The notes under the pieces: generated by a model | What the model was told of the DNA's origin: nothing | Database searches by the model: none | What the model saw: only the letters and a program-made list of their open reading frames with translations | Part shown: positions 10,611-37,633 of the stretch, one piece after another | Numbering within the stretch: position 1 is the first letter of the stretch | How the letters are laid out: every line of letters starts with the position of its first letter | Assembly (NCBI RefSeq): GCF_002964605.1 | Contig: NZ_PQDH01000002.1 | Span: forward strand, 541,090-605,089 | DNA length: 64,000 nt | Source: Vallitalea okinawensis | Lineage (GTDB): Bacteria; Bacillota; Clostridia; Lachnospirales; PQDH01 | Reading direction: 5' to 3' | Position numbers and translations under genes: made by a program

Positions 10611-10625
10611 AATGGTTCCTCCTTT

Positions 10626-11522: not shown

Positions 11523-11629
11523 CTTCCCATAATAAAGAGGTAAGCAGTTTTCACCACTTCCCTCTTATATTCAGTAATACTTATTGCATTATAACCTTTT
11601 CGGAGCACAATTAAGGCAACAGTTGCTTA

Positions 11630-13072: not shown

Positions 13073-13272
13073 TGCTGTAAAACCTCCAACATTTATTTAT
13101 TTGATAATTTCACTAATGTGCTTTTCCGGAACTCACATCTATATTATAACAGGCATCATAGAAATAAAAAATCGATAAAACTATCAAATGGTTTGTAATA
13201 ATATCCACTTTCTTTACCCACCTATTCACCTATGTTATACTAAAGAAAAATTACTTAAGAAAGTTCTAGGAT

Positions 13273-14601
13273 GTGAATGCTATGTTAAAACTGATTATTG
13301 TTGACGATGAATATCTTGTTAGAAAAGGACTTATATCGACGATAGACTGGATATCTATGGATATGGAAGTGGTTGGTGAAGCTGAAGACGGTGAAGAAGG
13401 TCTTGAATTAGTTAAGATTCTACGACCAGATATTATTATTACTGATATCCGAATGCCTAACATGAACGGTATAGAATTCATGGAAGCCGTACGTCAATTA
13501 TATTCAGATCAATCGGATTACTATGCTCACTTTATTATACTTAGCGGCTTTGATGAGTTTGAATATGCAAAAAAAGCTATTGAGAACGGAGCCCTAGCTT
13601 ATTTATTGAAGCCAATTGATAACGAAGTTATTTACGATACAATGAAAACAATTATTAAGAAAATAAAAAAGCAGCGTAGCACTCATAATTATTACAATAA
13701 ATTGCAACAAGAATTAACAAGTATTAAGCGTCAGTTTATTTATAATCTCATCCAAGGATCTATACATGAATTAGATATAATCCAAGAAAAAATAAAGTTT
13801 TTAGATTTGCCATTTAGTGAAGACAATCAATTGATTCTCTTTTTACAGCTTGATCAGCGCCATCGAGTTGGGGAGTCTTTAACAATAACAGAGCGTAATC
13901 AATTTCAGTATTTTTTAGAGAAAAATATTTCTCATCAGCTTCTCTTAGCTTCTGAGTACTATGGACTATTTGTTCAAATTGCTCCTTTTCAATGGGCAAT
14001 ACTACTCCAATCCATGGTCACAGATAAAGAGCGATTACATCATCAACTAAGGATAGCTTGTAATAGTTTTTTTAAGCAAACAGAAGAAACTATAGACAGA
14101 AAAGGGATGTCCAACCTTCCTAAACACTTGACATATTCCATAGGTATCAGTCAACTGAATCAGTCCATGTTGGAACTTAACCAACAATACAAACAGGCTA
14201 TACAGGCTGCTGATCACAAGTTGATTTTAGACGCATCAACTTTAACTTTTTATGATGATTTATTTAACACTCGTTATCGACCAGAGATACAAAATGCAAT
14301 CCATTATATTCATAAACATTATCAAGAAAATATAACCATCAAAGAAGCTGCTGAAGCATTGCACCTAAGTGCGTCACATCTCATGAGGTTATTTAAATCA
14401 GAAGTATCTGTAACCTTTAACGATTATCTTACCAACTACCGCATCAAACTTGCAGAGGAATTATTAATGCGGGGTGAATACAAAGTCTATGAAGTAGCTA
14501 ATAAAGTCGGTTATTATGATGTTAAATATTTTAGTCAGGTATTCAAAAAAAGAACAGGATTGACCCCTAGAGAATATAAACAAAAGAAAGGGAATTATTA
14601 G
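13273..14601 (+). CDS. two-component response regulator, AraC-type output (YesN-like)
   Basis: Receiver domain (LKLIIVDDE...DIIITDIRMPNMNGIEF) plus C-terminal AraC HTH (...YYDVKYFSQVFKKRTGLTPREYK). Confidence 0.85.
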   Translation: MNAMLKLIIVDDEYLVRKGLISTIDWISMDMEVVGEAEDGEEGLELVKILRPDIIITDIRMPNMNGIEFMEAVRQLYSDQSDYYAHFIILSGFDEFEYAKKAIENGALAYLLKPIDNEVIYDTMKTIIKKIKKQRSTHNYYNKLQQELTSIKRQFIYNLIQGSIHELDIIQEKIKFLDLPFSEDNQLILFLQLDQRHRVGESLTITERNQFQYFLEKNISHQLLLASEYYGLFVQIAPFQWAILLQSMVTDKERLHHQLRIACNSFFKQTEETIDRKGMSNLPKHLTYSIGISQLNQSMLELNQQYKQAIQAADHKLILDASTLTFYDDLFNTRYRPEIQNAIHYIHKHYQENITIKEAAEALHLSASHLMRLFKSEVSVTFNDYLTNYRIKLAEELLMRGEYKVYEVANKVGYYDVKYFSQVFKKRTGLTPREYKQKKGNY

Positions 14602-14606
14602 TTATC

Positions 14607-16361
14607 ATGAAATCTAAATCTACAAAAAGAACTATTCATCTATTTCAGAAATTCAAGATTCGATATACTTTTTTGCTTCCGATGATTTTATGGATTATGG
14701 TCTCTTCTATTGTTTTATCAACGATAGTTTTCTTTGTTTCAGGAAAATTTATAGAAAATGAAAACACTAAATTTATTCATAAGATACATGAAGAGACTGG
14801 TAGCCAATTGGAACTTAATTTTAATCGTCTGAGTATTTTTAGTTCAAATCTACTTAAAAACAATACCTTTCATAAATTACTACGAGATAATTCTAAGACC
14901 TTTGATGAAAAATCAGAATCACTTAGTCGTATTTTTGGTGATATAGGTTATGAGACTTCAGTTATAGGCTTTATTAAGATCATCACTAATGATTTGATAA
15001 TCTATAACCATACCCTAGAAGATATTCAGTTACCTACACCACCAATTGAAATACTGAACCAGTATTTATCAGAAAAATTCATATGGCAATGGGGTGAAAT
15101 GGTTCATGATCAGAATGGTAAGGCTTACTTACCCTATATACTAAAAGTGCATAACCTTTCGACTATGAAAGATAGTGGCATAGCTATCATCTACCTTAGA
15201 GAAGATACCTTACATGCTAGTTATAATAATTTATTGCCACAAGGAAGCGAATCCTTTATCCTATCTGGAGAGAACTACGTCATCTCTCATTCTAAGTCGG
15301 ATTATATTGGCTATAAGCTCTTTGACAATAATCTCTATATGGATACAAACTCCTTTTCATCCAATCGAGTCAATCAATTTGGTAAATCTGATGTTATTGT
15401 CGCAACTAACCTAGATGACTATATAGGAGGGTATCATCTGAACTGGACTATCATTACGAAGATTCCTACTTATATCCTATTCAAAGAGTTGGATCAGATT
15501 CGAACCAGCATTATTATCATAACTATATTGACTGTAACATTAGTTTCTCTAGTGATTCTTTCATTGTCCAAAACTTTATCAACGTCCATCTCCAACTTCA
15601 ATCAAAGGATTCAACAATATATAAAGGGAAATGTTACTGAGACCGAAAAGGGATCTGTTAGTAATGAAATACTGGAGTTAGAGCATGCGTATGATGCTTT
15701 GATACAAAGAATCCAATACTTGATTGAGACTAATAACCAAGAAAAAGAGAAGCAAAGAGATTTGGAATTACAAGCTCTCCAAGCCCAAATTAATCCTCAT
15801 TTTCTTTACAATACTCTTGATGCCGTTGCTTGGATTGCTAAAATGAAAAATCAAAAAGATATCGTTGATATTATTCTCTCTTTAGCTACCTTTTTCCGCT
15901 TAAGTCTTCATAAAGGTGACAAATACATTACTTTAGAAGAAGAACTGGATATAGTAAAAAGTTATGTAGCTATTGAGAAAATCCGTTTTCCAAATAAGTT
16001 TGAGTTGATTACTGACATTGACGAGGACTTATTGGACTATACAGTATTAAAGCTTATTTTTCAGCCCTTTGTTGAAAATGCCATCAAACATGGTATCAGT
16101 AAGAAGAAAGGTCCTGGGACTATTCACATCTCAGGTTTCTTAAAAGAAGGTACTTTAATCTTCCAGATTTCTGATGACGGTATTGGAAATGATGATATCA
16201 GTGCATTTTTTAAACCTGCCAAGGTTCAATCAGGGGGCTATGGTATCTTAAATGTTCGTGAACGTATGCGCATTGAATACGGTAAAGGCACTGATCTTTC
16301 TATAACTTCAGCTGCTGGTAAGGGCACTCTCATTACAATAACAATACCTATGATTGATTAA
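14607..16361 (+). CDS. sensor histidine kinase (YesM-like, His_kinase + HATPase)
   Basis: 2 TM flanking an extracytoplasmic sensor domain. QAQINPHFLYNTLDAVAW H-box and C-terminal GPGTIHISG...DDGIG ATPase motifs. Confidence 0.85.
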   Translation: MKSKSTKRTIHLFQKFKIRYTFLLPMILWIMVSSIVLSTIVFFVSGKFIENENTKFIHKIHEETGSQLELNFNRLSIFSSNLLKNNTFHKLLRDNSKTFDEKSESLSRIFGDIGYETSVIGFIKIITNDLIIYNHTLEDIQLPTPPIEILNQYLSEKFIWQWGEMVHDQNGKAYLPYILKVHNLSTMKDSGIAIIYLREDTLHASYNNLLPQGSESFILSGENYVISHSKSDYIGYKLFDNNLYMDTNSFSSNRVNQFGKSDVIVATNLDDYIGGYHLNWTIITKIPTYILFKELDQIRTSIIIITILTVTLVSLVILSLSKTLSTSISNFNQRIQQYIKGNVTETEKGSVSNEILELEHAYDALIQRIQYLIETNNQEKEKQRDLELQALQAQINPHFLYNTLDAVAWIAKMKNQKDIVDIILSLATFFRLSLHKGDKYITLEEELDIVKSYVAIEKIRFPNKFELITDIDEDLLDYTVLKLIFQPFVENAIKHGISKKKGPGTIHISGFLKEGTLIFQISDDGIGNDDISAFFKPAKVQSGGYGILNVRERMRIEYGKGTDLSITSAAGKGTLITITIPMID

Positions 16362-23602: not shown

Positions 23603-24676
23603 TTAGTTGCTACCATTTTCATTATGGGATTCACTTGCTTCACCACTTCCACTTTCACCTGAGGTACCATGTTCTGAAGCTTCACCACTCTCCCCGTTTT
23701 CACCACTACCAAATTCAGCGTGTGTTACCCATGAACTAAAGTCCTCATTAACTGGTAAAGAGAAATTAATGGTTTCTCCTGCAGCCAAGTCTACTGGAGT
23801 TGTTGGGCCAAGTTCTGTTCCACTATCTAAGTGAATTTCTACTCTTGCTCTTGTTAAAACTTGGTTACTTACATTTTGCAGTGTACCCTCAAAAGCTTTT
23901 TTTGAACTATTATATTGAAGAATCAATCTTCCGCCATTCTTCGCTATATCATAAATTTCATTCTTAGCTAGAGTTAACGCTCCTGTACTGGTTCCTTCCT
24001 CACCTGACTCTGATCCTTCTCCACTATGAGATTCCCCAGCTTCACCGCTTCCTTCTTCGCCCTCACCACTTTCACTGCCTTGGCCTTCAGCCTCTGGATG
24101 TATTTCCCATGCATCAAATTTAACTCCCTTTGCTTCTGGTTCTTCACTTACTAATAATTCTACATTAGCTTTTTCTCCAGGTTGTAGATCCCCTACTGGT
24201 TCTGGTCCAAGTTCCACTACTGTTTTTGTTCCTGATTTTAAATTTAACTCAATTAAAATACCTTTAATAACTTGGTCGGTTACATTTTCAACGATTCCGT
24301 AAAATCTTCCTTTGGCTTGGTCATATTGCATATCCGTACGGATACCATTAACTACACCATCCCAACCTTCATCTAATTGTAAAATTGGACTTGATGGATC
24401 TCCACTCTCACCTTCGCCGCCTTCTTCTGAATGCCCTTCGCCTCCTTCAGTGTGAGTTGCTCCTGACTCGTTACCACCTTCTGCCTCACTGCCTTCACCA
24501 TTCTCATTTTCTTGATGTGATTCTGCAATTTCATTGTTACCATTTTCAACATCAACATTAGGTGAGTCTGAACATCCTACCATTAATGCTATTGTCAGCA
24601 TACTCACTACCCCTAAAATCAAGAATCTCTTCATATATATCTTTTTCATAATCTTTAACTCCTTTCCTTTAATCAA
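23603..24676 (-). CDS. lipoprotein paralog of 22408..23595 (same two repeat domains, acidic linkers)
   Basis: Lipobox MVGCSDS. Long stretches are near-identical to the downstream gene at both protein and DNA level, for example SSPILQLDEGWDGVVNGIRT... Confidence 0.6.
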   Translation of the reverse strand: MIKGKELKIMKKIYMKRFLILGVVSMLTIALMVGCSDSPNVDVENGNNEIAESHQENENGEGSEAEGGNESGATHTEGGEGHSEEGGEGESGDPSSPILQLDEGWDGVVNGIRTDMQYDQAKGRFYGIVENVTDQVIKGILIELNLKSGTKTVVELGPEPVGDLQPGEKANVELLVSEEPEAKGVKFDAWEIHPEAEGQGSESGEGEEGSGEAGESHSGEGSESGEEGTSTGALTLAKNEIYDIAKNGGRLILQYNSSKKAFEGTLQNVSNQVLTRARVEIHLDSGTELGPTTPVDLAAGETINFSLPVNEDFSSWVTHAEFGSGENGESGEASEHGTSGESGSGEASESHNENGSN

Positions 24677-24742
24677 AATGTAATGATCATGAACATATTT
24701 ATACTATAGCAGTTGCGTGTGAGGATAATGTGAGTCTAAGAT

Positions 24743-24782
24743 GTTAGATAAAAGAAAAGAATCTCCTATATAAAGAGATTCT
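24743..24782 (-). terminator. terminator hairpin after the PhzF-family gene
   Basis: 14-bp stem AAGAAAAGAATCTC / GAGATTCTTTTCTT. Followed on the minus strand by TTTTAT. Confidence 0.5.
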
Positions 24783-24814
24783 TTTCTTATGTTAAGATCC
24801 ATATGTACTTTGAG

Positions 24815-25735
24815 TTATATCATCAATTCTGATTGAAAAACATTTACTGCTTCTCCGGAAATTTTCACTTCAACAGGCTCTTTATTTTCTATACTAACTT
24901 CAACTTCAATAATACCAGACCTACCAATAGCCTCTCCTTGCTTAGCTTTGAATTTGAAAAATGCCCCCTTGTGTTTTACCAGTTTATGATGAACAAGGTA
25001 AGCCCCTAGAGGTCCATTAGCATTTCCTGTGACTGGATCTTCATTTATACCGATTGCAGGAGCGAACATTCTACCTTTAACAAAGATGTTTTTACTTGGG
25101 GAATCCAGTGTAAAAACATAATATCCATTACTTCCTATGATTTCACTCAACTTAGAAAGAGCGTTGTAGTCTGGTCCTAGATGATTTAACTTTGTACTGC
25201 TTCTTATGCCTATCATAACTTTAGAGTGACCAGTTGATGCAATTTGAATAGGACAGTTTTCTAATAGATCTTCTTCACTAATACCTATAGCCAATAATAA
25301 AGCTTCCTTGTTCACACCCTCAATATAATTACCAAATTCAATTTTTCCCTGGGTCATTACAATTTTATAATCATCCTTTGTCTTGATGATATCAACTGGA
25401 AGAATCCCAACACCTGATTTTTGTTTGATTCTTGTAGTATTAAGATTATTTTCTACAGCACGTGCATAGTGTGCAGCTATAGTAGCATGCCCACATATTG
25501 GAACCTCATTTACAGGAGTAAAATAACGTATATAAACATCATGGTCAGTTGAATCTGAAGAAAAAATAAAAGCTGTTTCAGAGTTGTTTAACTCTCTTGC
25601 TATTTTCTGCATCTCACTTTCACTTAACCCATCAGCGTTTGTTACAACACCAGCCGGATTTCCAGTAAATTTTTCCTTTGTAAATGAATCGATTTGATAT
25701 AAACGATATTTTTTACTCATGTTTTCCTCCTTCAT
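24815..25735 (-). CDS. PhzF family isomerase (phenazine biosynthesis-like)
   Basis: 306 aa. YQIDSFTKEKFTGNPAGVV N-terminus and overall PhzF/DAP-epimerase-like pattern. Confidence 0.8.
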   Translation of the reverse strand: MKEENMSKKYRLYQIDSFTKEKFTGNPAGVVTNADGLSESEMQKIARELNNSETAFIFSSDSTDHDVYIRYFTPVNEVPICGHATIAAHYARAVENNLNTTRIKQKSGVGILPVDIIKTKDDYKIVMTQGKIEFGNYIEGVNKEALLLAIGISEEDLLENCPIQIASTGHSKVMIGIRSSTKLNHLGPDYNALSKLSEIIGSNGYYVFTLDSPSKNIFVKGRMFAPAIGINEDPVTGNANGPLGAYLVHHKLVKHKGAFFKFKAKQGEAIGRSGIIEVEVSIENKEPVEVKISGEAVNVFQSELMI

Positions 25736-25846
25736 ATTAGGTCTTACTCAATATTTCCATATCATATATGATTTAGATTCGCATCTGTTTATACTTGTTT
25801 TCCCCTTACAAGTAGCTAGGTGAACTACTTAGTTTCAAAGTAAATT

Positions 25847-25878
25847 GCTATACTATGAAACAAATCTCATAGTATAGC
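25847..25878 (-). terminator. hairpin downstream of the giant ATPase gene
   Basis: 12-bp stem GCTATACTATGA / TCATAGTATAGC. The T-tract is weak. Confidence 0.4.
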
Positions 25879-25932
25879 AATAAACAATCCTAACTTCCAA
25901 GTCATGATCTTTTGGTCGTAATCAATCCCTAT

Positions 25933-28900
25933 TTAAGATCTCCCCTTAGCTAGTATATCTTTGATCACTTCTATATTCTCAGTAAGATTACTTAAAACCA
26001 TTACTGCCTGACCTAGCTTATCATCACCCTTGACTAACTTATTTTTTACAAATATCTTCTTAATCTCATCCCAGCGTTGTTGTTCTTCACCGGTTAGACG
26101 ACCCACTATCTCTTTCCACTTAAGCATATTTGCCTCTGCCCCAGTTGTTAATGTCTGTGAATCATTTTCATAGCTTCCAAGAATGACTTGGAACAGCTCT
26201 TCTTCATTCATAACAGAAACAACTTTCTCAGCAATCTTGTTCATATTTCTATAAGAACCTTGAAGCTTAAAAGGTGGTTCACTCCTATACTCATCAGCTT
26301 GAGCAGCAGAATAGATATATGCCATATTCACTTTCAGAACAATATCTCTCACATGAGATAACTTTTCGATAACACCAACATATTCATTAAGTTCATCGAT
26401 AGAGTAATTGCTCTCAAAGTTAACATTTTCTCTTTCGGCTCCACTAGCCATTTCAATAAGACCGTAAAGATCCTTTTGGCTTCTACTAGATAGCTTACTC
26501 AGTACGGTATTAGAAGTTAAGCTATTTTCAATATAACTAAGTTTAAATGCTTCTTCATTTTCTCTAAGCATATCTCCAAGATTATAGACATCAGCTCTAT
26601 TAGAAAGCATATCTGGTATCTTGAATTTTTCACCACTTTCTGTGTAAGGGTTCCCAGCCATAACAACGGCTACCTTCTTACCTCTTAAATCATAGGTCTG
26701 CCCTACACCATTGTAAACCCCTTCTATCTTTCGTTGACCATCGCATAATGAAATGAACTTTTGTAAAAACTCTGGGTTACAGTGTTGAATATCATCAACA
26801 TAGATCATAACATTGTTACCCATCTTTAAGGCTAGATTCAACTTTCTCAGTTCATCTCTTGCACTGGTATTATTAGCTTTAGCTGGGTCTAATGATGTCA
26901 CTTCATGACCTAGGGAAGGACCATTAACTTTGACTAAAATAATGCCAAGTCTGCTTGCAATATACTCCATTAAAGTCGTTTTACCATAACCAGGCGGAGA
27001 AACTAATAGCAACATCCCCATAAGGTCTGTTCGCTTATTCTCTCCAACAACACCGATTTGTTTAGCAAGATTATCTCCTATTAAAGGCAAGTAAACTTCG
27101 TCTATTAACCTATTTCTAACAAATGAGGTGAGTACTTTAGGTTTAAAGTCATCTAAATGCAGTTCATCTTTAAAGCCTTGTATAAGTTCCTTCTTAATTT
27201 CCTGAAACTTCATATAATCTATAGCTATGACATCATCATAATGTACTAACTTATTCATAAACTGAGTATAAGCTAGTTTATATGAACCATTATCAATAAC
27301 CCTATGTGTTCCAACTAATCCTGTTATATTTAATTTAGTGTCAACGCTAATAACTCTACCCAAATTAGAGTTATTTTCAATGAGCAAAACAATAACCTCA
27401 TCAAGTACACCAAACAATTCTTCCTCATCAATATTTTCAAATATACTCACATTGATATCAGAAAGCTCTTCAGATTCAGTTTGATTATTTTGTACCAAGA
27501 TATCTAATCGATAAGCATGAATCCACTCTTTGATAAGATAGAATAGTCCTTCTATATCTTTTGAACTATTTTTTATGGATGCTGTGAAATCATCCATTGC
27601 CTTCTTATCCCTTAAATACATCATGAATCCATCATATATTCTTTTAGCTTCTCTACTGACAACAAATTCTTCACCTTTCATGATCTCTTTACAAAGATAT
27701 TCTGCCGCGCTAGGAACATCTTCTTTATCAAAGAAAGTCATCGAATCAAATGTCTTTTCAAGCTTTTCAATAATATATGGAATGTAGCTCTCTAAATTAG
27801 GTGTTGCTTTAAAATATAAATTAACCTTTGCTAATTCCCTTAATCTAAGAAAGAGCAAATCCTTTGTTTCAGCATCAGCTAAACAATTCCAGTACATTCT
27901 TCCTAACGCCCGAACCTCGCTCTTATAGACTAGCAAATCAATGTTTTGATGTAGTTCTAGTAATGCTTTTAGAATCTTTGCTCCATCGAAATCATGTACA
28001 CCTTTTGTATAACCCTCTTTGTATCTTGGTTCCATGAACTTTTGAACCACTTCAACCAATTGAGACTCAGACATAGAATATAAATTATCTATGCTTTCTA
28101 ATTCTTTATTACTTGCAGCTTTAAACACTAAATAGGCAAGGTATTCAGCTCTATAAACATCTTCATTCTCTGACACGATACTCTGTCCAAACACATGCCC
28201 ATACTTGTCAATCTCCTCATGATTTACTTTATCCCAGAAATCAGTTCCTGTTATATGGTAATACAGGTCGGCATCCTTTTGAACAATAGACAAGTCGATG
28301 GCTTTTGTATTAACAGAGAAATGATGTTGACCCAATTTGATAACATTATCATTTCCGACATAAAGTTCTTGCTTATCTTTTAGTTGACGAATGGCATCCT
28401 CTTTTAAGGTCTTTAATTTTGAGCTGATCTCGTCAGCTTTAACGGTATCCCCTAGTTCTCTTAAAGTAGCTATGATGTCGCGAACCTTTTCTGCCATAAT
28501 GTCAGTAGCTAGATAGCCATTAATATCTTCAACAGAATCAAAATTCTTTACCCTATTGGCAATTCCACTCATAATACGTTCAGATGAGTTAAATAGAGAG
28601 GTCATCCGCTTATTAAGCTTATCTAAAAGGGCTTGTTTCTTACTTTCAAAAGCGCTATAGAGTTCTTCTCTTTTTTCACTAAGTTGAATGACATACTCAT
28701 CAAATTCAGCGAACTTGCCTTCTAATTCCTGTATTTGAACCATAACCTTATTAAGGTACTGATCACATTTATCTACCGTATCTGAGACATCCAGATAATT
28801 GACTACAGCCTGGCTAAGTAGTTTCATTTGAGAATTAAACTGGGTTGTCATTTCACTTTTAGTAAATTCTTCTACCCTTGTTTTTAATCTCGCTTTAGCA

Positions 28901-30906
28901 TTATTAAGGAGTGAGAATAGGGATGAAATTTTCTCTATGATCTCTGTTGTCATTGTAGGATCTTCTATCTTAAAGTTACTTACAATATCGATAAGAAGCT
29001 CTAAATCAGCAGAAGTGTCATCCATCTTTTCTGCAAGCTCCTTACCTTCCTTCGATTTATGAACATCTTCGATTTCATCATGTAACTTTTGTACTTGATC
29101 AGCATAAGGTTTAAGCCCTTCTGGCTTAATTAAGAACTCAACACATTTTTTAGAGAACTCTTCATTCTTTTCTCTTACTCTCGTATCAAGGGATTCAACA
29201 ATATCAAGGTCTGTATACCTTAAATCTCTTAGTGAAACAATTTTACCTCGTAGATTCCGTATGTCAGCTAATACCTTGACGTATTCGTTTACTGAATCAA
29301 AGGTACCGTACTGAAGTTTTTTAAGGAGTTCTTCAGATTCATTATTAACATCAGTAATTTGCTTTTTAGTTGAATTCTTTATTCGAACTACTTTTTCAAA
29401 CTCACCAATGGCGAAAGTAGAGGTCTCTTTTATACTTAAAAGAACTTCTTTTAAATTATATACTTCTTGTTTATCTAACCAGAAATACCCATCAATGATT
29501 TGCTCAGCTTCTTTAACTATATCAATATAAATACTCTGGTAACTCTCACCTTTTGTAATGAGCTTGTAGACAATTTTGCAATCAGCCATGCAGTTAACTA
29601 TATCTTTATTGCCGATATTAAAAAGAATGGAATCACTTTGACCTTCTCTTACATAATTTTTACCTACATAAGGCGTTTGCCAAATTTGTATCATGTGATT
29701 CTTTCTTGGCTCATTTTCATGTTTGAATACAATCATTTCACCGTTATTAAAATGAGAGTAGCCGCTACATACGATTGGTGTCTCTATTGTTTGCTCGATG
29801 ATGTTATAGGAATAGACAATGTATATACCGCTATCCATGTTATAAAAAATATACTGATAATCTTCTCCATTTGATGAAGTGACCATCTGATCAAAAACTG
29901 AATTTTCATTGGGAACATCAAATATTTTATGTTCACCATTTTGTAAATAATAGCCTTTCGGAAAAATAAGTCCATGATTCCCAGGCAATAATAAACAAGT
30001 ATCTTTTATTGAATCGATTCTAACAATATTCTTTAATTTGTTGTTAAAAACAAAATATCTGAAGTCTGTTTCATTAAATGGTCGGATTTTTAATATGATC
30101 AATTGGTCTAAGTCTGCATAGTAAATCTCTGCATCGTCAAGATTCTGATCTTTGTCCTCTACAGCTTCTGAATATATGCCCTTACCAGTCTCTGTATTAT
30201 CCTCAACTTTAATTGTAAGATCACCATTGATTGTTTCAACAAAAACTTTATCTAGAATAGAAACATGAGGATAAAGTCCATTGCGTTGGTCATCCCGGGT
30301 GGCTTTGATATAGTTAAACTCATTTTTATTTGTAAACTTAACCTCATGGTCACTTCTACTATCAACGTATGTGAGCTTATTGCCTTCAATCAACCATTTA
30401 AATACTTTAATATCTGTGGCACTCTTTCCAGTCTGAAAAATCATATAGAAATAGGGTTCTGTTATAGTAAATTTGGCAAAAAATGTATTCTTATAATATT
30501 TGTACAGTTCATCGAAGTCTTTTACAAACTGCTGGTCATTAATGAGATTAAGATTTTGTTTCTGAAAGGTACGATCTTTAAAGTGATAAATAGAAAATAC
30601 ATCACTCAGCTCAACTTTAGTTTTAAGGCCAATATGGACATTGTAACCAAATATAAAGCAATCATCTACAGGTGCCATATCTCGTGGTATACAATTGTTC
30701 TCAGTTATGATTCGCTCACTACCAAGAAGCTTTGTCTCAATGGAGCCAAAGACTTCTTTTCTCACTGTGTTAAGCTTTTCCAAACGTTCCTTTAAGTCAT
30801 CTCCATGTTTAATAAGACGATTTCTAATGACCTCATAAGTACCATTTTCCATACCATCATTGTTATTTCCTTTTTTCTTTATCTCTTTATCATCTCTAAC
30901 GTCCAA
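25933..30906 (-). CDS. giant (1657 aa) cytoplasmic protein with a single internal AAA_5 (MoxR/McrB/dynein-type) NTPase domain; function unknown
   Basis: Continuous ORF starting at a TTG (30906-30904), with GAGGT about 9 nt upstream. Walker A VSPPGYGKTTL near residue 1230, Walker B-like IYVDDIQHCNPEFL, sensor-like VVMAGNPYTESGEKFKIPDMLSNRADV. Long predicted coiled-coil and helical regions. No TM segments. Confidence 0.7.
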   Translation of the reverse strand: MDVRDDKEIKKKGNNNDGMENGTYEVIRNRLIKHGDDLKERLEKLNTVRKEVFGSIETKLLGSERIITENNCIPRDMAPVDDCFIFGYNVHIGLKTKVELSDVFSIYHFKDRTFQKQNLNLINDQQFVKDFDELYKYYKNTFFAKFTITEPYFYMIFQTGKSATDIKVFKWLIEGNKLTYVDSRSDHEVKFTNKNEFNYIKATRDDQRNGLYPHVSILDKVFVETINGDLTIKVEDNTETGKGIYSEAVEDKDQNLDDAEIYYADLDQLIILKIRPFNETDFRYFVFNNKLKNIVRIDSIKDTCLLLPGNHGLIFPKGYYLQNGEHKIFDVPNENSVFDQMVTSSNGEDYQYIFYNMDSGIYIVYSYNIIEQTIETPIVCSGYSHFNNGEMIVFKHENEPRKNHMIQIWQTPYVGKNYVREGQSDSILFNIGNKDIVNCMADCKIVYKLITKGESYQSIYIDIVKEAEQIIDGYFWLDKQEVYNLKEVLLSIKETSTFAIGEFEKVVRIKNSTKKQITDVNNESEELLKKLQYGTFDSVNEYVKVLADIRNLRGKIVSLRDLRYTDLDIVESLDTRVREKNEEFSKKCVEFLIKPEGLKPYADQVQKLHDEIEDVHKSKEGKELAEKMDDTSADLELLIDIVSNFKIEDPTMTTEIIEKISSLFSLLNNAKARLKTRVEEFTKSEMTTQFNSQMKLLSQAVVNYLDVSDTVDKCDQYLNKVMVQIQELEGKFAEFDEYVIQLSEKREELYSAFESKKQALLDKLNKRMTSLFNSSERIMSGIANRVKNFDSVEDINGYLATDIMAEKVRDIIATLRELGDTVKADEISSKLKTLKEDAIRQLKDKQELYVGNDNVIKLGQHHFSVNTKAIDLSIVQKDADLYYHITGTDFWDKVNHEEIDKYGHVFGQSIVSENEDVYRAEYLAYLVFKAASNKELESIDNLYSMSESQLVEVVQKFMEPRYKEGYTKGVHDFDGAKILKALLELHQNIDLLVYKSEVRALGRMYWNCLADAETKDLLFLRLRELAKVNLYFKATPNLESYIPYIIEKLEKTFDSMTFFDKEDVPSAAEYLCKEIMKGEEFVVSREAKRIYDGFMMYLRDKKAMDDFTASIKNSSKDIEGLFYLIKEWIHAYRLDILVQNNQTESEELSDINVSIFENIDEEELFGVLDEVIVLLIENNSNLGRVISVDTKLNITGLVGTHRVIDNGSYKLAYTQFMNKLVHYDDVIAIDYMKFQEIKKELIQGFKDELHLDDFKPKVLTSFVRNRLIDEVYLPLIGDNLAKQIGVVGENKRTDLMGMLLLVSPPGYGKTTLMEYIASRLGIILVKVNGPSLGHEVTSLDPAKANNTSARDELRKLNLALKMGNNVMIYVDDIQHCNPEFLQKFISLCDGQRKIEGVYNGVGQTYDLRGKKVAVVMAGNPYTESGEKFKIPDMLSNRADVYNLGDMLRENEEAFKLSYIENSLTSNTVLSKLSSRSQKDLYGLIEMASGAERENVNFESNYSIDELNEYVGVIEKLSHVRDIVLKVNMAYIYSAAQADEYRSEPPFKLQGSYRNMNKIAEKVVSVMNEEELFQVILGSYENDSQTLTTGAEANMLKWKEIVGRLTGEEQQRWDEIKKIFVKNKLVKGDDKLGQAVMVLSNLTENIEVIKDILAKGRS

Positions 30907-30930
30907 TATTATCTACCTCATCTATATACA

Positions 30931-30969
30931 TTGAACTAAGATTTAATACAGCTCTCAATCTTAGTTCAA
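30931..30969. other. perfect 13-bp inverted repeat (TTGAACTAAGATT ... AATCTTAGTTCAA) in the 83-bp spacer between the flotillin and giant ATPase genes
   Basis: Direct reading of the sequence. Stem 13 bp, loop 13 nt, no strong T-tract. Confidence 0.6.
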
Positions 30970-30989
30970 TATATTTTCCTTGATTCAAC

Positions 30990-33020
30990 TTATTTAAGTT
31001 TAGTGTCAATCATTTTTGCTGGTAAATTACCTACTCCTGCCTTATCAACAGTGTCCAACAATTTACCTAGCATTGTCTTATCTTCTCCATCAGCATTTTT
31101 CATCATTTTATTAACAGCACCAGCTATGGATAGGTTTTTCAAGTCTTCTGATGTTAAGTTAAATCGACTAACTAAATCCTGTAACTGTTTTTGGAAGTAC
31201 TCTGGATCACCAGTAATAAATGTCTCTTTAATGTCTGAAAGTACTTCACTATTATTAACTAGACGATCATAGGATTTACCTTGAGCAATTGAACCAATGA
31301 TCTTATCAAAGAACATGGTTTCTCCACCAACGATATCAATTTTAGCTGACTTAAGTGCCTCTCTAATAACTGAAGCTTGTGATTGAGCAATTTCTGTCTG
31401 AATATTGATATTAGCAAGCTCAATTTCTTTCTCTTTTTCAAGTTGAAGTTTGAACTCTTCATGACCTCTGCCCACTTCATCTAATGCCTTCATACTATTA
31501 GCTTTCTCTTTGATACCTTCTGCTTCTGCAAGGTATTTTTTCTTTAAGACATCTGCTTCAACGGTTCCTTCTTTTTCTTTTACCTCAATCTTCGCTGTAT
31601 CGCCTTTCGCCTGCGCTAAAGCTTTTGCTTCAATAACTTTTGCTTCAGCAATACCACTGGTAGACTCTTCAAGAATATTAGCATCTACAATAACCTTAAT
31701 TGCTTCTGCTTCTTTTTGTGATGCTTTTAATTTTGCATCTGCATCAATAACAGTTTTTTCTGCATTTCTTTCAGCTGCTTGTTTAGAAGCCTCTGCCGTT
31801 TGAACCTTGATAATAAGGTCTTGCTCTGCTTGCTCCTCTGCCTTTTTAATAGCCACAGTCTTATAACGATCTGCCTCAGCAATCGCACGAGTATCTTTGA
31901 TCTTCTCTTCTTCTACAACTGTATCTTTCTCAACAGCTACTCTTTCTCTGATGACTGTCTGAATATTCTTCTTTTCAACTTCTACTTCTTTTTCTTTCGC
32001 AATAGTAGCAAGCTCCACTAATTTATCTTTCTCGGTTCTTTCAAGTAACCTTTTTCTATCAACTCTTTCAGTTTCAACAGCGTCTGTACTTTCTTTTGCT
32101 TTCTGAGCAATAATTACTTGTCTCTCTTTGTTTTGTTCAGCAACTTCAATTTCCTCATCAGCCTTAACTCTTGCCATCTCTGACTTAAATCGCTCTTCTT
32201 GAGCAACCTTTTCAGCTTCTGCAGTTTCTCTAGAATTGATAATAGAAACCTCACGTTTTTGCTTTGCCTCTGCCTCTGCATTTTGCTTCTCAAGTTCAAG
32301 TATAGCTTCTCTTGCTGTTACATCCTGTTGCTTAAGTGTCTTTTGCTCATCTCTTTCTATTTGGTTAGCTAAGATACGTTGCTCTGCAGTAAGCTCTGTG
32401 ATTTTCTTAATACCTTCTGAATCTAAAATATTATTGCTATTTAATAGATTAACGTCTGTTTGTTCTAGATAATCGATAGCTGCATCATCCATGACATAAC
32501 CATTTAAGTCTGTTCCAATGATCTGGAGAATTTCACTTTTAAAAGTCTCTCTTTCAGTATAAAGCTGAACAAAGTCAAACTTTTTACCTACTGTTTTTAA
32601 GGCTTCTGAGAACTTTGCATCAAAAAACTCCATTAAAGTAGTAGGATCGGATGCCTTTTGGCAACCTAATGATTGTGCTACTTTTAAAACATCCTCACTG
32701 GTTTGGTTTACTCTAACGAAAAAAGCAACTCTAATATCGGCTCTTAAATTATCCTTACAAATTAAGCCATCTTTACCTTCTCTGGCAATCTCTACTCTCT
32801 TTACTGAAATATCCATCACTTCATATCTGTGTATGATTGGTACGACAAACATGCCGCCAAAACTTACGATAGGACCACCAACACCATTTCTAACAATGAC
32901 CTTACCTTGCTCAACTTTATGATAGAACCTTGAAAACAGCGCTAATAATCCTACAATGACAATAACCGCTACCCCAATACTGACTAAAGTAACTTGACTT
33001 AAAAAATCCATTCTTATCAC
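30990..33020 (-). CDS. flotillin-like SPFH/band-7 protein (FloT/YqiK type)
   Basis: 676 aa. N-terminal TM (VTLVSIGVAVIVIVGLLALF), SPFH domain, then a very long Ala/Glu-rich coiled coil (EAEAKQKRE..., AEEQAEQDL...) as in YqiK/FloT. Confidence 0.85.
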   Translation of the reverse strand: MIRMDFLSQVTLVSIGVAVIVIVGLLALFSRFYHKVEQGKVIVRNGVGGPIVSFGGMFVVPIIHRYEVMDISVKRVEIAREGKDGLICKDNLRADIRVAFFVRVNQTSEDVLKVAQSLGCQKASDPTTLMEFFDAKFSEALKTVGKKFDFVQLYTERETFKSEILQIIGTDLNGYVMDDAAIDYLEQTDVNLLNSNNILDSEGIKKITELTAEQRILANQIERDEQKTLKQQDVTAREAILELEKQNAEAEAKQKREVSIINSRETAEAEKVAQEERFKSEMARVKADEEIEVAEQNKERQVIIAQKAKESTDAVETERVDRKRLLERTEKDKLVELATIAKEKEVEVEKKNIQTVIRERVAVEKDTVVEEEKIKDTRAIAEADRYKTVAIKKAEEQAEQDLIIKVQTAEASKQAAERNAEKTVIDADAKLKASQKEAEAIKVIVDANILEESTSGIAEAKVIEAKALAQAKGDTAKIEVKEKEGTVEADVLKKKYLAEAEGIKEKANSMKALDEVGRGHEEFKLQLEKEKEIELANINIQTEIAQSQASVIREALKSAKIDIVGGETMFFDKIIGSIAQGKSYDRLVNNSEVLSDIKETFITGDPEYFQKQLQDLVSRFNLTSEDLKNLSIAGAVNKMMKNADGEDKTMLGKLLDTVDKAGVGNLPAKMIDTKLK

Positions 33021-33577
33021 TCCTCAAATTTCACGATGTAATATATATTCTTATCGGTGTCTTTTCTATTAACGAATGCAACTTCACCTTTTACAAATGA
33101 ATCTCCATCATATTCTGACTTAACATTAAAGATTAAGGGAGCTCCATCTCTTTTTATTTCTGCCTGTCCTATTCTCCCACTATTGACATCACAAATAAGT
33201 ACACATAGTTGTTTGATTACTTGATTACCTCTATTATCTTGCATATTGCTATACTTAAATATACCTTTTAACGGTTTTGACTCAAACTTAGTAATGATCA
33301 TACTCACGATTAAAGCTGGTAGTAGCAATATCCCTTGTATCGCCCCTCCAGCAGTTATGGGTAAGTAATACATCATCATAGTTACTATCCAAAAGTTGAG
33401 CATCCATATACTAAAAACCAACATAAAAGGCAACTCAGCTACATTTAGAAAGGCTAATATAGCATAAAAAGGTCCTGATTGATCAGCAGCATCAAGGTCT
33501 ATATCAAAATCAAGAAAATCAAAATCTAAAGTACCAACAATAACACTGATCCAATAAAACAATACTAACCCTAACAA
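33017..33577 (-). CDS. NfeD/YqiJ(YuaF)-like membrane protein, the usual flotillin partner
   Basis: 186 aa. N-terminal membrane helices, then a C-terminal soluble beta-rich segment. Overlaps the flotillin start by 4 nt (translational coupling), as in yuaF-floT and yqiJ-yqiK pairs. Confidence 0.65.
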   Translation of the reverse strand: MLGLVLFYWISVIVGTLDFDFLDFDIDLDAADQSGPFYAILAFLNVAELPFMLVFSIWMLNFWIVTMMMYYLPITAGGAIQGILLLPALIVSMIITKFESKPLKGIFKYSNMQDNRGNQVIKQLCVLICDVNSGRIGQAEIKRDGAPLIFNVKSEYDGDSFVKGEVAFVNRKDTDKNIYYIVKFEE

Positions 33578-33902
33578 TACAGTAGGTATAATATTAACCC
33601 CTGTAACAGCATATTGTAATAACTCCGTCGTAACAACCCCCTAACTCTATATATTATGATTATATCAGCTCATTTCCTTATTATAACAAAAAACATCTTG
33701 GTAATAAATACCTGTAATCATAAAAACACCAAAATATATTATACTTGTAATTTTATTACCACCTCTAAAGATAGTCAAGGTAAATTGCTTATAGACATAA
33801 TAATCTTGCTTATCTTATACATTTTAAATCATAAAATCGCAGATAACTATTATAATTCGACATATATACCATGCTAATAATACTCTTAGCTTTTTTCCAC
33901 TA

Positions 33903-33925
33903 TAAAAGAGGAGGTAACCCTCCTC
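33903..33925 (-). terminator. terminator downstream of the BCCT transporter gene
   Basis: Stem GAGGAGG / CCTCCTC with a 4-nt loop. Followed on the minus strand by TTTTAT. Confidence 0.5.
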
Positions 33926-34056
33926 ATAAATTATAACTTCTATTATCATCACCAATATCAGTACAGAAATGCTTCTCAAACAATTCTTACTACGATTCTT
34001 TTGCTTTCATAATTACTGAACTTAGTTTTATCCTCTCTAAAGAAGTTATCTTGCAT

Positions 34057-35619
34057 TTATCCGTCCTTGGAAACCACATCGTACTTGTCTGATTTTTTCA
34101 TCATCAGTAACAAAGAAACTATGCTTAAGACACCTAAGAATAATGCTGGAAAACCACCTAGATATGAAAGCATTTTTATTCCATCAATACCAAGGGTTGC
34201 AATGAAAATTAAAGATACTGCACCGATGATAATTCCCCAAACTACCTTAATTAATAATGGTGCTTCTTGGCTTCCATCTTTAATGCCAGAAGTACATATA
34301 CTTGCCATAGCATTGGTTGTTGAATCTGTAGCTGTGATAAAAGAAATCATTACCGCGATCAAATAAATACCTATAATTAAACCTGAAAGAGGTAATTCAC
34401 TGAGAACAGCATACGCTGCAGCTGCAGATCCTTGCTCATTCATCTTAGCAATTACATCCACTTTTCCTGTCAATTGAAAATTAATAGTTGTACCTGAGAG
34501 TATTGTCATCCAAACAGTACTAAAAATACTAGGTACAATGAAATTCATCATAATAACTTCCTTAATTTTGTAACCATAAGCTATCCTTGCTAGAAATACA
34601 GCTGAAACAGGAGCCCATGCCATCCAGTTAGACCAGTAAAACATTGTCCAACCTGAAGCCCATGAATCTCCAGAAGATGCACCTGTAAACAAAGCTTTAG
34701 AAAAAAAGTTATCAATAAATCCTCCAAAAGCTTCAGTACCCAAACTCGAAAAATAAGTGAAAGGACCCAGAAATAGCAATGCTGCAATTATGACATAATA
34801 AAGATATACATTAACATCGGATAATACCCTAATTCCTTTCATTAAACCTGTACCAGAAGAAATGATAAAAGCTATTGTACCCATAATGGTGATCATTATC
34901 CAAAGGGTTTTATCATTATCCATACCAAAAAGGGCGTTTAATCCGCCCCCCATATTCATAACAGCAGTACCGAATGAAGAAGATATCCCCGCAGCTACTG
35001 TAAAGAGAACAATAGCATCTATGATTCCGTTTATTTTTCTTTGATTATTATGCGATATTAGAGGTGATATTTGAGATCCAACACTAAATGAACGCTTCAT
35101 ATTATAATAAGCAAAAGCAAATACGATAGTTGGTACTGCATAGATTCCATAAGGTATGAAAGTCCAATGAAGAAACATGGTCTCCATAGCAAATTTGGCT
35201 GCTTCTGGCGACATAGGAGCTATTCCTAATGATTCTGGTGGATAAGCTAAATGCCACATTGGTTCAGCTGTACCCCAAAAAAGTATGCCTGCTGCTATGG
35301 TTGTACACAATGTTATGGCAAACCATGATGATTTTTTTAGCATTGGTTTCGCGTTTTTTCCACCAAGTCTCACTTCCCCTAGTGGTGAAAAATACGCCAA
35401 GACAATGACGATGACACACATTACTCCAACAATACTAAACACCCACCCCATGTCAATGACCATGAAATCTTTAGCTAATGTTGTTATGCTTAAAAAAGCA
35501 TCATAGTTCACAAAGTTCAATACAATTGTCATAATCAGCAAAATAAATGCTGGAAAAAAAACAAATGGTCTAATTTTTGCTAATAATGATTTTTCAGTAT
35601 TACTATTTGTATTATTCAA
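34057..35619 (-). CDS. BCCT family transporter (betaine/carnitine/choline)
   Basis: 520 aa, about 12 TM. The GILFWGTAEPMWH motif is the BCCT family signature. Confidence 0.85.
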   Translation of the reverse strand: MNNTNSNTEKSLLAKIRPFVFFPAFILLIMTIVLNFVNYDAFLSITTLAKDFMVIDMGWVFSIVGVMCVIVIVLAYFSPLGEVRLGGKNAKPMLKKSSWFAITLCTTIAAGILFWGTAEPMWHLAYPPESLGIAPMSPEAAKFAMETMFLHWTFIPYGIYAVPTIVFAFAYYNMKRSFSVGSQISPLISHNNQRKINGIIDAIVLFTVAAGISSSFGTAVMNMGGGLNALFGMDNDKTLWIMITIMGTIAFIISSGTGLMKGIRVLSDVNVYLYYVIIAALLFLGPFTYFSSLGTEAFGGFIDNFFSKALFTGASSGDSWASGWTMFYWSNWMAWAPVSAVFLARIAYGYKIKEVIMMNFIVPSIFSTVWMTILSGTTINFQLTGKVDVIAKMNEQGSAAAAYAVLSELPLSGLIIGIYLIAVMISFITATDSTTNAMASICTSGIKDGSQEAPLLIKVVWGIIIGAVSLIFIATLGIDGIKMLSYLGGFPALFLGVLSIVSLLLMMKKSDKYDVVSKDG

Positions 35620-35823
35620 GATAAAGCCCCCTATATAATCTTATTTTTTCTTGTGTATACTCTCAACCTCTCTATATACGATTCTCAAAAGTAATTTTTT
35701 TATATCATTAGTCATGTTATCAAAATAAGTCGATTTTAAGTATAATTAACTTGATATTAGTCATCAATGTTGTATAATAATTATATAACTTATGCTACTA
35801 AATTGATTAAAGAGGTGGTTACT

Positions 35824-36387
35824 ATGAAAAACTTACTTTCCCTATTAGAAGATAATCCAATCATAGGTGGTGTTAAAGACAACAAAGGTTTAGATGAAGT
35901 CCTAAGATCCGATTGCAACGTTGTATTTGTTCTATATGGTAACATATTAACCATCAGCGATATCATAGATAAAGTTAAAAATTCAGGCAAACTTGCATTT
36001 GTTCATGTTGATTTACTGGAAGGTACATCTCACAAAGATGTAGTTATTGAATATATTAAGGAAAAGACAAAAGCAGATGGTATTATTAGTACGAAAGCAC
36101 ATATGATACAAGTGGCTAGAGAATATGGTCTTTTCACAGTACATCGTTTCTTTCTTGTGGACTCAATGTCTTTTTACAGTCTAGAAAAACAAATATCACA
36201 TTCCAAGCCTGACTGCATTGAAATTATGCCAGGCTGTATGCCAAAAGTATTAGGTTGGGTTGTTGACTTGGTTGATGTTCCTATCATAGCAGGTGGCTTA
36301 GTATGTGCAAAAGATGATGTTGTTAACGCCCTTAAAGCTGGAGCTACTGCAATTTCTACAACAAATATGGGGGTTTGGAAGGTGTAG
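35824..36387 (+). CDS. glpP: GlpP-family glycerol-3-phosphate-responsive antiterminator
   Basis: Start moved to ATG 35824 (RBS AAGAGGTGG upstream). MKNLLSLLEDNPIIGGVKD...FVHVDLLEGTSHKDV... matches GlpP. Confidence 0.7.
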   Translation: MKNLLSLLEDNPIIGGVKDNKGLDEVLRSDCNVVFVLYGNILTISDIIDKVKNSGKLAFVHVDLLEGTSHKDVVIEYIKEKTKADGIISTKAHMIQVAREYGLFTVHRFFLVDSMSFYSLEKQISHSKPDCIEIMPGCMPKVLGWVVDLVDVPIIAGGLVCAKDDVVNALKAGATAISTTNMGVWKV

Positions 36388-37633
36388 TTTCTTTCAAAGC
36401 TTCAAGAATGTACTGCTTTAATTTACCTATACCGTTTTCAGTAAAAATCGTCGCACCTTTTAAATAATTTTCAATAGATACCCTTTTGATGATTTCTTTT
36501 GCTTCCATATATTCATGATAATTCTGTGGTAGGAAATTTATATGTAAATGTGCATCTAGCATATGCCCAAATACTACATATCGAATATCTGTTTGTAGAT
36601 TCACATAATGACATATATCTTTAATATTACTTATATCAGTTGATAATTTTGTTATTCTATTATCTGATTTTTTTGCTTGCTCGATGGACATATTGCAACA
36701 TTCAGCTGCTGCATGTCTATAATTCGCCATTTTATCCAAGTCATCTTCCGTGGATACTGCTAAAGCTTGATCAATATCTGAGTGGTTATTAGCTGCTAAA
36801 TCCATCAAAATCTCTGCTGATCTTTCAATATCTTCTTCATTATCCGAAAAAATTTCTGTATAAATCATATGGACATCTTTTTCAAATTCAGGAACTCCTT
36901 TTAGCTTATCCATGCCATACCGAAATTCTTGAATAAGAGCAATCGCACTAGCGCTCATATACTCAAAACTCATTATATTCTCGATTTTACTTTCTTCCAC
37001 ATCTTTGGCAAAACCAACAGCATCCTCTGTTCTATCAAAAAGAAAAACAATACCCCATATATGCTCCGCTTTTTTTAGTAATTTTAATCGAAGTTGGGTA
37101 ACTACGCCTGCTTTTCCTTCCTTTTTATAGTAATTATATATTTTCTCATCTTCCGTGGAAATGATGTGCTTACGACCATCAAAGTCGATTACTTCTATCC
37201 CAGCAAAGTACTTGATGCTGTCACCTAAGCTATAATTTCTAGGACCTCTAGCCCCCGTTGAGAAAATCCCTCCAATACTTGCTGTTTTCTCTGTACAATC
37301 TACAGGAAAAAAGTATCCCTTTTTCTCACGATTAACAAATTCATTTATGGCAAATAGCGGTACACCAGGCATTACTGAAAGTATATCATCATCAATAGTG
37401 AATATCTTATCCATTTTACTCAAATTTATTAGTAGACCACCATGAGGTACACTTCCACCAACAATTCCAGTTCTACCACCTTGTACAGTTATAATGCTGT
37501 TTTCTTTATTATTGCTTTTTAGTAAGTCAATAACCTCTTCTTCGCATGTAGGGAACTCGATATAGTCACAGAATCCTTGCAATTTAGACTCATCACTTAA
37601 ATAATCAACATACTTATCTTGATATTTATTCAT
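36356..37633 (-). CDS. FAD-binding oxidoreductase (FAD_binding_4 / GlcD-like FAD-linked oxidase)
   Basis: VQGGRTGIVGGSVPHGGLLINLSKMDKI is the FAD-binding PCMH-type motif. Overlaps the upstream ETF-alpha gene. Confidence 0.8.
   Translation of the reverse strand: MNKYQDKYVDYLSDESKLQGFCDYIEFPTCEEEVIDLLKSNNKENSIITVQGGRTGIVGGSVPHGGLLINLSKMDKIFTIDDDILSVMPGVPLFAINEFVNREKKGYFFPVDCTEKTASIGGIFSTGARGPRNYSLGDSIKYFAGIEVIDFDGRKHIISTEDEKIYNYYKKEGKAGVVTQLRLKLLKKAEHIWGIVFLFDRTEDAVGFAKDVEESKIENIMSFEYMSASAIALIQEFRYGMDKLKGVPEFEKDVHMIYTEIFSDNEEDIERSAEILMDLAANNHSDIDQALAVSTEDDLDKMANYRHAAAECCNMSIEQAKKSDNRITKLSTDISNIKDICHYVNLQTDIRYVVFGHMLDAHLHINFLPQNYHEYMEAKEIIKRVSIENYLKGATIFTENGIGKLKQYILEALKETTPSKPPYLL

Follow-up and report, generated by a model that had tools for sequence, protein, structure and literature searches.

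A giant AAA+ ATPase encoded next to a flotillin and an NfeD-like protein in Vallitalea okinawensis: a putative partner of flotillin scaffolds across bacterial phyla

Proteins of the SPFH family form large membrane cages, several of which work with AAA+ machines, as HflK/C does with FtsH and prohibitin with the m-AAA protease. Ring oligomers are the working form of AAA+ modules; the ATPases of the MoxR class remodel specific protein complexes and usually require a VWA/MIDAS partner. The function of the bacterial flotillins, of which FloT has about 509 amino acids (aa) and YqiK 553 aa, is a long-standing open question. The present analysis concerns an operon of Vallitalea okinawensis in which the genes of a small NfeD/YqiJ-like membrane protein and of a flotillin are followed by that of a giant ATPase of 1657 aa. 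It lies in a stretch of 64,000 nucleotides (nt) from contig NZ_PQDH01000002.1, positions 541,090 to 605,089, called the window below; coordinates without a locus name count from its first letter.

The closest described system comes from the work of Ravi et al. (2024, mSystems; PMC11237479; bioRxiv 2020), who reported operons combining a CesT/Tir-PspA dyad with a flotillin, an ATPase and a YqiJ/YuaF protein with three transmembrane segments (3TM). Abbreviated operons of flotillin and YqiJ/YuaF, "in some cases" with the ATPase, were found to be more widely distributed and may act with PspA encoded elsewhere in the genome. In the supplement of the same paper, the Dokdonia operon is listed as CesT_Tir, YqiJ-YuaF, Band-7 + coiled-coil + flotillin, and beta-propeller + coiled-coil + AAA-ATPase. 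The authors tied the operon to the phage shock protein (PSP) envelope-stress systems and proposed roles in sub-membrane dynamics and complex assembly. The association of the three genes is thus already known, in silico and from comparative genomics, since 2020 and 2024, and the original prediction made from the letters of the window erred in taking it for undescribed. The present analysis is no discovery in this respect; it confirms the association, describes the structure of the giant and corrects its annotation. No ATPase partner is mentioned by Hinderhofer (2009), and a literature search under the database names of the giant (DUF3686, PF12458, DUF7902 or "DNA repair ATPase") with flotillin found no paper on the family.

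The listing of open reading frames (ORFs) of the window contains three co-directional ORFs on the minus strand, in the order NfeD/YqiJ-like protein, flotillin, giant ATPase:

33017..33631, minus strand: gene of a YqiJ/YuaF-type NfeD-like membrane protein, with a conserved in-frame N-terminus up to ACG 33631-33629
30990..33011, minus strand: flotillin family (SPFH/Band_7) protein, 673 aa; Band_7 match of 31.6 bits against a cut-off of 23.6
25933..30906, minus strand: giant soluble protein, 1657 aa, DUF3686 + DUF7902 + AAA+, by Pfam and NCBI identity

These genes form one operon in V. okinawensis. Their common orientation had been predicted correctly, as had the gap of 83 bp before the giant ORF, which is counted from the flotillin stop codon to the giant start, and the length and TTG start of the giant (ORF 30906..25933). 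The flotillin start had been misplaced. It was predicted to overlap the NfeD-like gene by 4 nt, while ATG 33011 sits 5 nt past the NfeD stop codon (33019-33017); the assignment to the FloT/YqiK type holds (Band_7, anchor and coiled coil) but the length of 676 aa from GTG 33020 does not, the annotated protein having 673 aa from ATG 33011.

The main result is the constancy of this arrangement. One genome per species was scanned, which gave 298 relatives of the giant; 80 loci were retrieved and all counts are drawn from these 80 of the 298, the flotillin count from the 62 loci with more than 2.3 kb upstream of the giant and the NfeD-like count from the 57 with more than 3.1 kb. A flotillin lies directly upstream of the giant and on the same strand in 61 of 62 informative loci, with a median gap of about 26 nt, and the NfeD-like gene is found in 56 of 57. 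The loci belong to Bacillota, Planctomycetota, Bacteroidota, Verrucomicrobiota, Fibrobacter, Chitinispirillaceae, Lentisphaeria, Riflebacteria and Sumerlaeota, and their giants are 42-83 % identical to that of the window. Clostridium beijerinckii and C. paraputrificum are tractable carriers among the hits. Such a repetition of one gene order in many phyla is far beyond chance. All-versus-all clustering of the ORFs of the 80 loci gave the three families and antisense shadow ORFs only, without a fourth conserved gene. Moreover, identity to the window proteins co-varies, with r = 0.97 for giant versus flotillin and r = 0.96 for giant versus NfeD. The sole informative locus without a flotillin, L077 of Pseudobacteroides cellulosolvens ATCC 35603 (9843-10300), is a decayed one: a deletion running from about codon 55 of the flotillin gene to about codon 92 of the giant gene has fused the two out of frame, so that the flotillin is destroyed and the giant N-terminally truncated.

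The N-terminal domain of the giant, whose core corresponds to DUF3686, is almost confined to the N-terminal end of proteins with 1600-2036 aa; it makes up 512 clusters (50 % identity) at E <= 1e-10 among 1.8 billion representatives. Because of this distribution, the linkage in 61/62 and 56/57 loci and the co-divergence, the giant is, as far as gene neighbourhoods can tell, a specific and nearly obligate partner of the flotillin/NfeD pair. The tie between a giant ATPase and an NfeD-flotillin pair that had been proposed for the window alone is therefore found in 61 of 62 loci. Two outcomes named beforehand as speaking against it, membership of the giant in a characterised family and homologues that do not co-occur with flotillin/NfeD, were looked for and neither was observed.

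The giant is identical to NCBI WP_242985356.1, "DNA repair ATPase [Vallitalea okinawensis]". Its TTG start is preceded by a GAGG ribosome-binding site 8 nt upstream. It is soluble, as expected from the original prediction, since it has no hydrophobic segment. Pfam matches cover residues 37-475 (DUF3686, PF12458, E = 3.4e-177) and 597-679 (DUF7902, E = 4.5e-25), and AAA, AAA_22 and AAA_5 match at about 1297-1424, slightly over threshold (29.7 bits for AAA), the classical AAA model PF00004 slightly outscoring AAA_5. This DUF3686 + DUF7902 + AAA architecture is shared by more than 4900 homologues, and within Clostridia identity reaches 62-83 % over 1650 aa. The giant thus has a Pfam family, but not a characterised one. 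Sequence searches of NCBIfam and the PDB gave nothing useful for it beyond RuvB/p97 matches of about 50 residues around Walker A, which stay well under the family cut-offs.

Two AlphaFold2 monomer models cover the whole protein (mean predicted local distance difference test, pLDDT, 84.6 and 85.7), built from an alignment of 57 sequences of 40-85 % identity. After a disordered tail (residues 1-19), the predicted parts are as follows, with residue numbers in brackets:

29677..30858, minus strand: N-terminal helix (17-53) and beta-propeller-like domain (59-410, about 27 strands); AlphaFold2, pLDDT 84.6
28363..29628, minus strand: helical rod (427-848) of spectrin-repeat-like antiparallel helix bundles, including DUF7902 (597-679); AlphaFold2
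27157..28344, minus strand: middle region (855-1250) with a small beta-sheet, a conserved helical domain and a long connecting helix; AlphaFold2, pLDDT mostly >90
26572..27057, minus strand: AAA+ alpha/beta core (1284-1445) with Walker A, Walker B, sensor 1 and an Arg-finger candidate
25936..26571, minus strand: AAA+ lid and conserved C-terminal helical domain (1446-1657), with an invariant PFKLQGSYRNMN block at 1545-1556

The models and Foldseek searches agree with the beta-rich N-terminal part and the long helical region that had been predicted. The propeller-like domain is the core of Pfam DUF3686; propeller proteins are matched by it in Foldseek with E values of 1e-6 to 1e-3 and low template modelling (TM) scores. 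The helical domain of the middle region has no recognised relatives and carries invariant residues such as Y966, G969, H971 and D972. For residues 1-860 (window 28327-30906), the best Foldseek matches are IFT-A, Elp1, clathrin heavy chain and a nucleoporin, all of them with a propeller ahead of a helical solenoid, which is how the domains of membrane-coat proteins are ordered. Since the superpositions are poor (TM <= 0.17), the likeness is one of domain order only, and kinship with protocoatomer proteins is set aside as speculation.

In the AAA+ module, Walker A (GYGKTT) occupies residues 1306-1311, Walker B (VDDIQ) 1370-1374 and the sensor-1/Arg block 1417-1440, with N1419 as sensor 1 and R1437 as Arg-finger candidate; the motifs thus lie at 1306-1440 and not around residue 1230, where they had been placed. 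Walker A, the DD of Walker B, N1419, R1437 and the PFKLQGSYRNMN block are invariant in the 57 sequences, down to 40 % identity. Because the Walker motifs, sensor 1 and the Arg residue are invariant, the giant looks catalytically active. A loop at the position of pore loop 1 is conserved and has no aromatic residue. A pre-sensor-1 beta-hairpin is predicted at residues 1389-1411, and the nearest solved folds of the module are the MoxR ATPases CbbQ and NorQ, followed by dynein and midasin. Judged from the model, the giant is an AAA+ ATPase of the MoxR/dynein/midasin structural class.

The flotillin, read from ATG 33011, is 100 % identical to the NCBI entry "flotillin family protein [Vallitalea okinawensis]", and its homologues are called YqiK by the Joint Genome Institute (JGI). 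Its N-terminal anchor is followed by an SPFH domain and then by about 350 aa of E/A/K-rich coiled coil, and the C-terminal region is conserved. The membrane anchor comprises about residues 1-33 from ATG 33011, or 4-36 of the 676-aa GTG-start ORF, and residues 200-550 are 54-70 % E/K/R/D/Q/A with hardly any G or P. Flotillins of giant-linked loci measure 664-741 aa. As many of these orthologues score below Band_7 detection, they represent a divergent flotillin subfamily; sequence searches of the PDB gave no significant match for the flotillin.

The NfeD-like protein contains 3-4 hydrophobic segments, and its C-terminal part is soluble. It matches YqiJ_N weakly (16.8 bits against a cut-off of 23); with an extended N-terminus it has no family match, and the NfeD C-terminal model does not match it either. 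Its homologue in L069, related to it by tblastn (E = 6e-16), exceeds the YqiJ_N cut-off with 29 bits. The canonical-start ORF (33577..33017) encodes 186 aa from a TTG. The true start is uncertain because the conserved N-terminus TELLQYAVTGVNIIPTVLL continues in frame upstream of this first canonical start, as far as an ACG (33631-33629) that takes the place of the ATG of the relatives and is preceded by AGGGGG and 5 nt. In V. maricola (L075) an Ile codon occupies this position. Further upstream, the reading frame is bounded by an in-frame TAG (33643-33641). Initiation could be non-canonical, or the protein could be N-terminally shortened. An exact-sequence look-up in the protein collection found neither the TTG-start NfeD sequence nor the GTG-start flotillin sequence.

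A link to PspA exists in 2 of about 57 loci. In L049 (4052-6173) and L069 (4215-5628), the NfeD-like gene is immediately preceded by PspA, of which L069, a Verrucomicrobiota metagenome-assembled genome (MAG), has two tandem copies. L049, a Cyclobacteriaceae MAG (Bacteroidota), carries an opposite-strand HTH_3+Peptidase_S24 gene, CesT_Tir_1 (E = 3e-58), PspA_IM30 (E = 4e-45), the YqiJ-like gene, the flotillin, a DUF3784 insert and the giant, which is 49 % identical to that of the window and has the domains DUF3686+DUF7902+AAA. Since this full-form operon contains such a giant, the ATPase of Ravi et al. is of the DUF3686 family. The window operon is an abbreviated form because the CesT/Tir-PspA dyad is absent from the 64 kb.

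We consider it very probable that the three proteins act together. As to how, remodelling of a flotillin cage by the giant ATPase is the explanation that we favour, at about even odds. By homology, flotillin and its YqiJ/NfeD-like partner would form an oligomeric scaffold of the SPFH type at the membrane, on its cytoplasmic side. The giant would oligomerise through its AAA+ ring and dock on this assembly with its propeller and rod arms, and ATP hydrolysis would then remodel the flotillin assembly by assembling, opening or disassembling the cage. Such remodelling may serve membrane maintenance or an envelope-stress response functionally allied to the PspA systems.

A number of points weigh against this proposal. 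We infer a physical interaction between giant and flotillin from gene linkage and co-divergence alone, and as its substrate the cage itself, a client membrane protein and PspA all come into question. In the model, the helix-2 insert that characterises the MoxR clade is not evident; beta2 and alpha2 are joined by a conserved 18-residue loop without a beta-hairpin. No VWA/MIDAS partner gene is conserved in the 80 loci or present in the flanks of the window. Neither PspA nor CesT is encoded in the 64-kb window, and the literature searched contains no experiment on any member of the giant ATPase family.

The proposal has to be set against four other explanations. The flotillin cage might be a mere platform on which the ATPase extracts, unfolds, inserts or cofactor-loads clients in flotillin microdomains, much as FtsH sits inside HflK/C or as NorQ and CbbQ remodel particular enzymes; we regard this as rather unlikely. 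It is established that SPFH cages enclose or regulate AAA+ machines, the nearest folds are the MoxR remodellers CbbQ and NorQ, and the propeller head could bind clients. In PMC11222466, flotillin is reported to stabilise unfolded membrane proteins. However, no conserved client gene lies beside the operon, the giant has no protease domain, VWA/MIDAS adaptor or membrane anchor, its loop at the pore-loop-1 position lacks the aromatic residue, and the co-divergence with flotillin suits a direct partner at least equally well. Alternatively, the giant might be a Vps4-like motor that disassembles or remodels polymers of PspA (ESCRT-III superfamily) recruited to flotillin domains on membrane damage. 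The loci L049 and L069, with PspA directly upstream of the NfeD-like gene, are in line with this, as are Ravi et al. (PMC11237479), who put the operon among the partners of PspA and its abbreviated forms with PspA encoded elsewhere. This explanation is weakened by the rarity of PspA linkage, 2 of about 57 loci as compared with 61 of 62 for flotillin; the window itself is devoid of PspA, and the giant has no MIT-like domain and a MoxR-like AAA+ module which is not of the classical Vps4 clade. We hold it to be quite improbable.

The original prediction had also likened the arrangement to conflict or defence systems, with a membrane scaffold recruiting a large NTPase. An anti-phage role would fit the patchy distribution across phyla and the few loci with selfish or defence-like inserts between flotillin and giant, such as the Schlafen AlbA_2/Fic-like_C gene of L069. 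Yet PADLOC returned nothing for flotillin or the NfeD-like protein and, for the giant, only a P-loop match of 30 residues to IetA (E = 3e-5); nuclease and effector genes are missing, the flanking genes are metabolic ones in the window and metabolic or variable ones in the 80 loci, conservation within Clostridia is very high (62-83 % over 1650 aa), gene order is fixed without a conserved extra gene, and giant and flotillin co-diverge with r = 0.97. The defence reading did not survive these results and appears very unlikely to us. Least credible of all is a DNA-repair ATPase related to RuvB, SbcC or SMC. It has in its favour the Pfam description of DUF3686 as "ATPase involved in DNA repair", the corresponding NCBI name and weak matches to RuvB_N and RuvB. 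These matches reach 20-22 bits against cut-offs of 282-299, over some 45-60 residues around Walker A, and no RuvB structure in the PDB scores better than E = 0.0018. Moreover, the giant has no DNA-binding or nuclease domain, its helices are spectrin-like and do not form the antiparallel coiled coil with split ABC heads of SMC/Rad50, it has a single C-terminal AAA+ module, and its invariable neighbours are membrane proteins. A dynamin-like identity was rejected, as the Pfam search found no GTPase domain in the giant.

Within the window, whose G+C content of 33-36 % suits a Vallitalea (Clostridia), the following signals accompany the operon:

33925-33908: terminator of the BCCT transporter gene, preceding the promoter candidate
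33750..33778, minus strand: sigma-70-like promoter candidate TTGACT-17-TAAAAT upstream of the operon, by consensus match only
30926..30974, minus strand: intercistronic stem-loop between flotillin stop and giant ribosome-binding site, with 18-nt arms, a 13-nt loop and no U tract
25844..25881, minus strand: terminator-like hairpin 52 nt past the giant stop, with arms of 15-17 bp and a weak T tail

The tight spacing, the absence of terminators between the genes, the promoter-like site on the 5' side and the terminator-like hairpin on the 3' side are consistent with a single transcript. Promoter-type consensus sites are no more numerous in the region than expected from shuffled sequence. The hairpin at 25844..25881 probably marks the end of the operon. 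Rfam gave zero matches across window positions 24000-36500. The operon is flanked by genes of a BCCT transporter, PhzF, a two-component system, an electron transfer flavoprotein (ETF) and a flavin adenine dinucleotide (FAD) oxidase, which does not bear out the supposed context of accessory genes and certainly makes no defence island. As predicted, no VWA, nuclease or other effector gene accompanies the operon, either in the flanks or conserved among the 80 loci.

The intercistronic stem-loop, also detected as an inverted repeat, folds with a minimum free energy of -21.4 kcal/mol (z = -3.6). As a candidate element for processing, stability or attenuation, it would determine how much flotillin is expressed relative to the ATPase. 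Strong hairpins, unrelated in sequence, occur at the same place in most other loci with a flotillin-giant gap of at least about 85 nt, in a comparison that took in gaps up to 260 nt and several phyla; in loci with gaps of about 11 nt the hairpin is absent. The loci with a hairpin between flotillin and giant are:

window, L003, L024, L026, L028, L031, L032, L036, L037, L042, L050, L054, L055, L057, L063, L064, L066, L067, L071

These recurrent hairpins may be a device for differential expression of flotillin and ATPase within the operon.

In 7-8 loci of Bacteroidota, Verrucomicrobiota and Planctomycetota, genes unrelated to one another are inserted between flotillin and giant:

L069:8385-9938: Schlafen AlbA_2 + HATPase_c_4 + Fic-like_C protein
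L049:9179-9928: DUF3784 membrane protein
L045:9045-9689: P-loop (GPNGAGKS) protein, from the start of its sequence alone
L033:848-1198: IS200/transposase-like ORF, from the start of its sequence alone
L046:6992-8158, L065:1722-2774 and L062:766-1470: further inserts

In a Saprospiraceae MAG (L057:6489-7163), the NfeD-like gene and the full flotillin are separated by a 224-aa duplicate of the flotillin N-terminus, which includes the anchor and the beginning of the SPFH domain. The flotillin is split in L035 (7875-9904) and L068 (3357-5411) and the giant in L039 of Fusibacter sp. JL216-2 (9989-14997); each of these split ORFs is due to a frameshift or an assembly error or is a pseudogene.

The name "DNA repair ATPase", carried by thousands of proteins, is probably wrong and appears to derive from a P-loop and long helices alone. 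A flotillin subfamily that is almost obligately coupled to a highly conserved ATPase in at least seven phyla offers an experimental handle on what flotillins do. It is possible, though doubtful, that the giant is the first dedicated ATP-driven machine for the assembly and disassembly of an SPFH/flotillin cage, with a logic like that of Vps4. In that case the flotillin domains of bacteria would undergo active cycling instead of being passive scaffolds, and the propeller and alpha-helical rod would be arms resembling membrane-coat proteins in domain order.

How does the locus compare with known systems? The operon of Ravi et al. encodes the same three proteins in the same order, with CesT/Tir, PspA and phospholipase D genes that the window lacks; their description, drawn from comparative genomics, came without a family name, structure or experiment. 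The operons yuaF-floT-yuaI of Bacillus subtilis and yqiJ-yqiK of Escherichia coli likewise begin with a small YqiJ/YuaF-type gene followed by that of an anchored SPFH coiled-coil flotillin. In comparison, the flotillins considered here are longer (664-741 aa) and always have the giant ATPase next to them.

With the AAA_5 proteins of the MoxR class (CbbQ, NorQ, RavA), dynein and midasin, the giant shares the predicted pre-sensor-1 beta-hairpin and an AAA_5 match slightly over the Pfam threshold, and in dynein and midasin the motor is also joined to long helical elements. Sequence similarity to these proteins is nevertheless marginal. The giant differs from them by the lack of a VWA/MIDAS partner gene and of an evident helix-2 insert, by DD instead of DE in Walker B, and by its single AAA+ module, which ends a chain of 1657 aa that also comprises a propeller and a spectrin-like rod. 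HflK/C-FtsH and prohibitin-m-AAA also couple an SPFH scaffold to an AAA+ ATPase, a coupling known here from operon linkage. However, the giant is a soluble protein of another AAA+ clade without a protease domain, and the scaffold would face the cytoplasm, whereas HflK/C faces the periplasm. Finally, the logic resembles that of Vps4-ESCRT-III, in which an ATPase is dedicated to a membrane-bound polymer of helical proteins, and PspA is occasionally linked to the operon. Unlike Vps4, the giant has no MIT domain and stands outside the classical AAA clade, and its constant partner is not PspA but flotillin.

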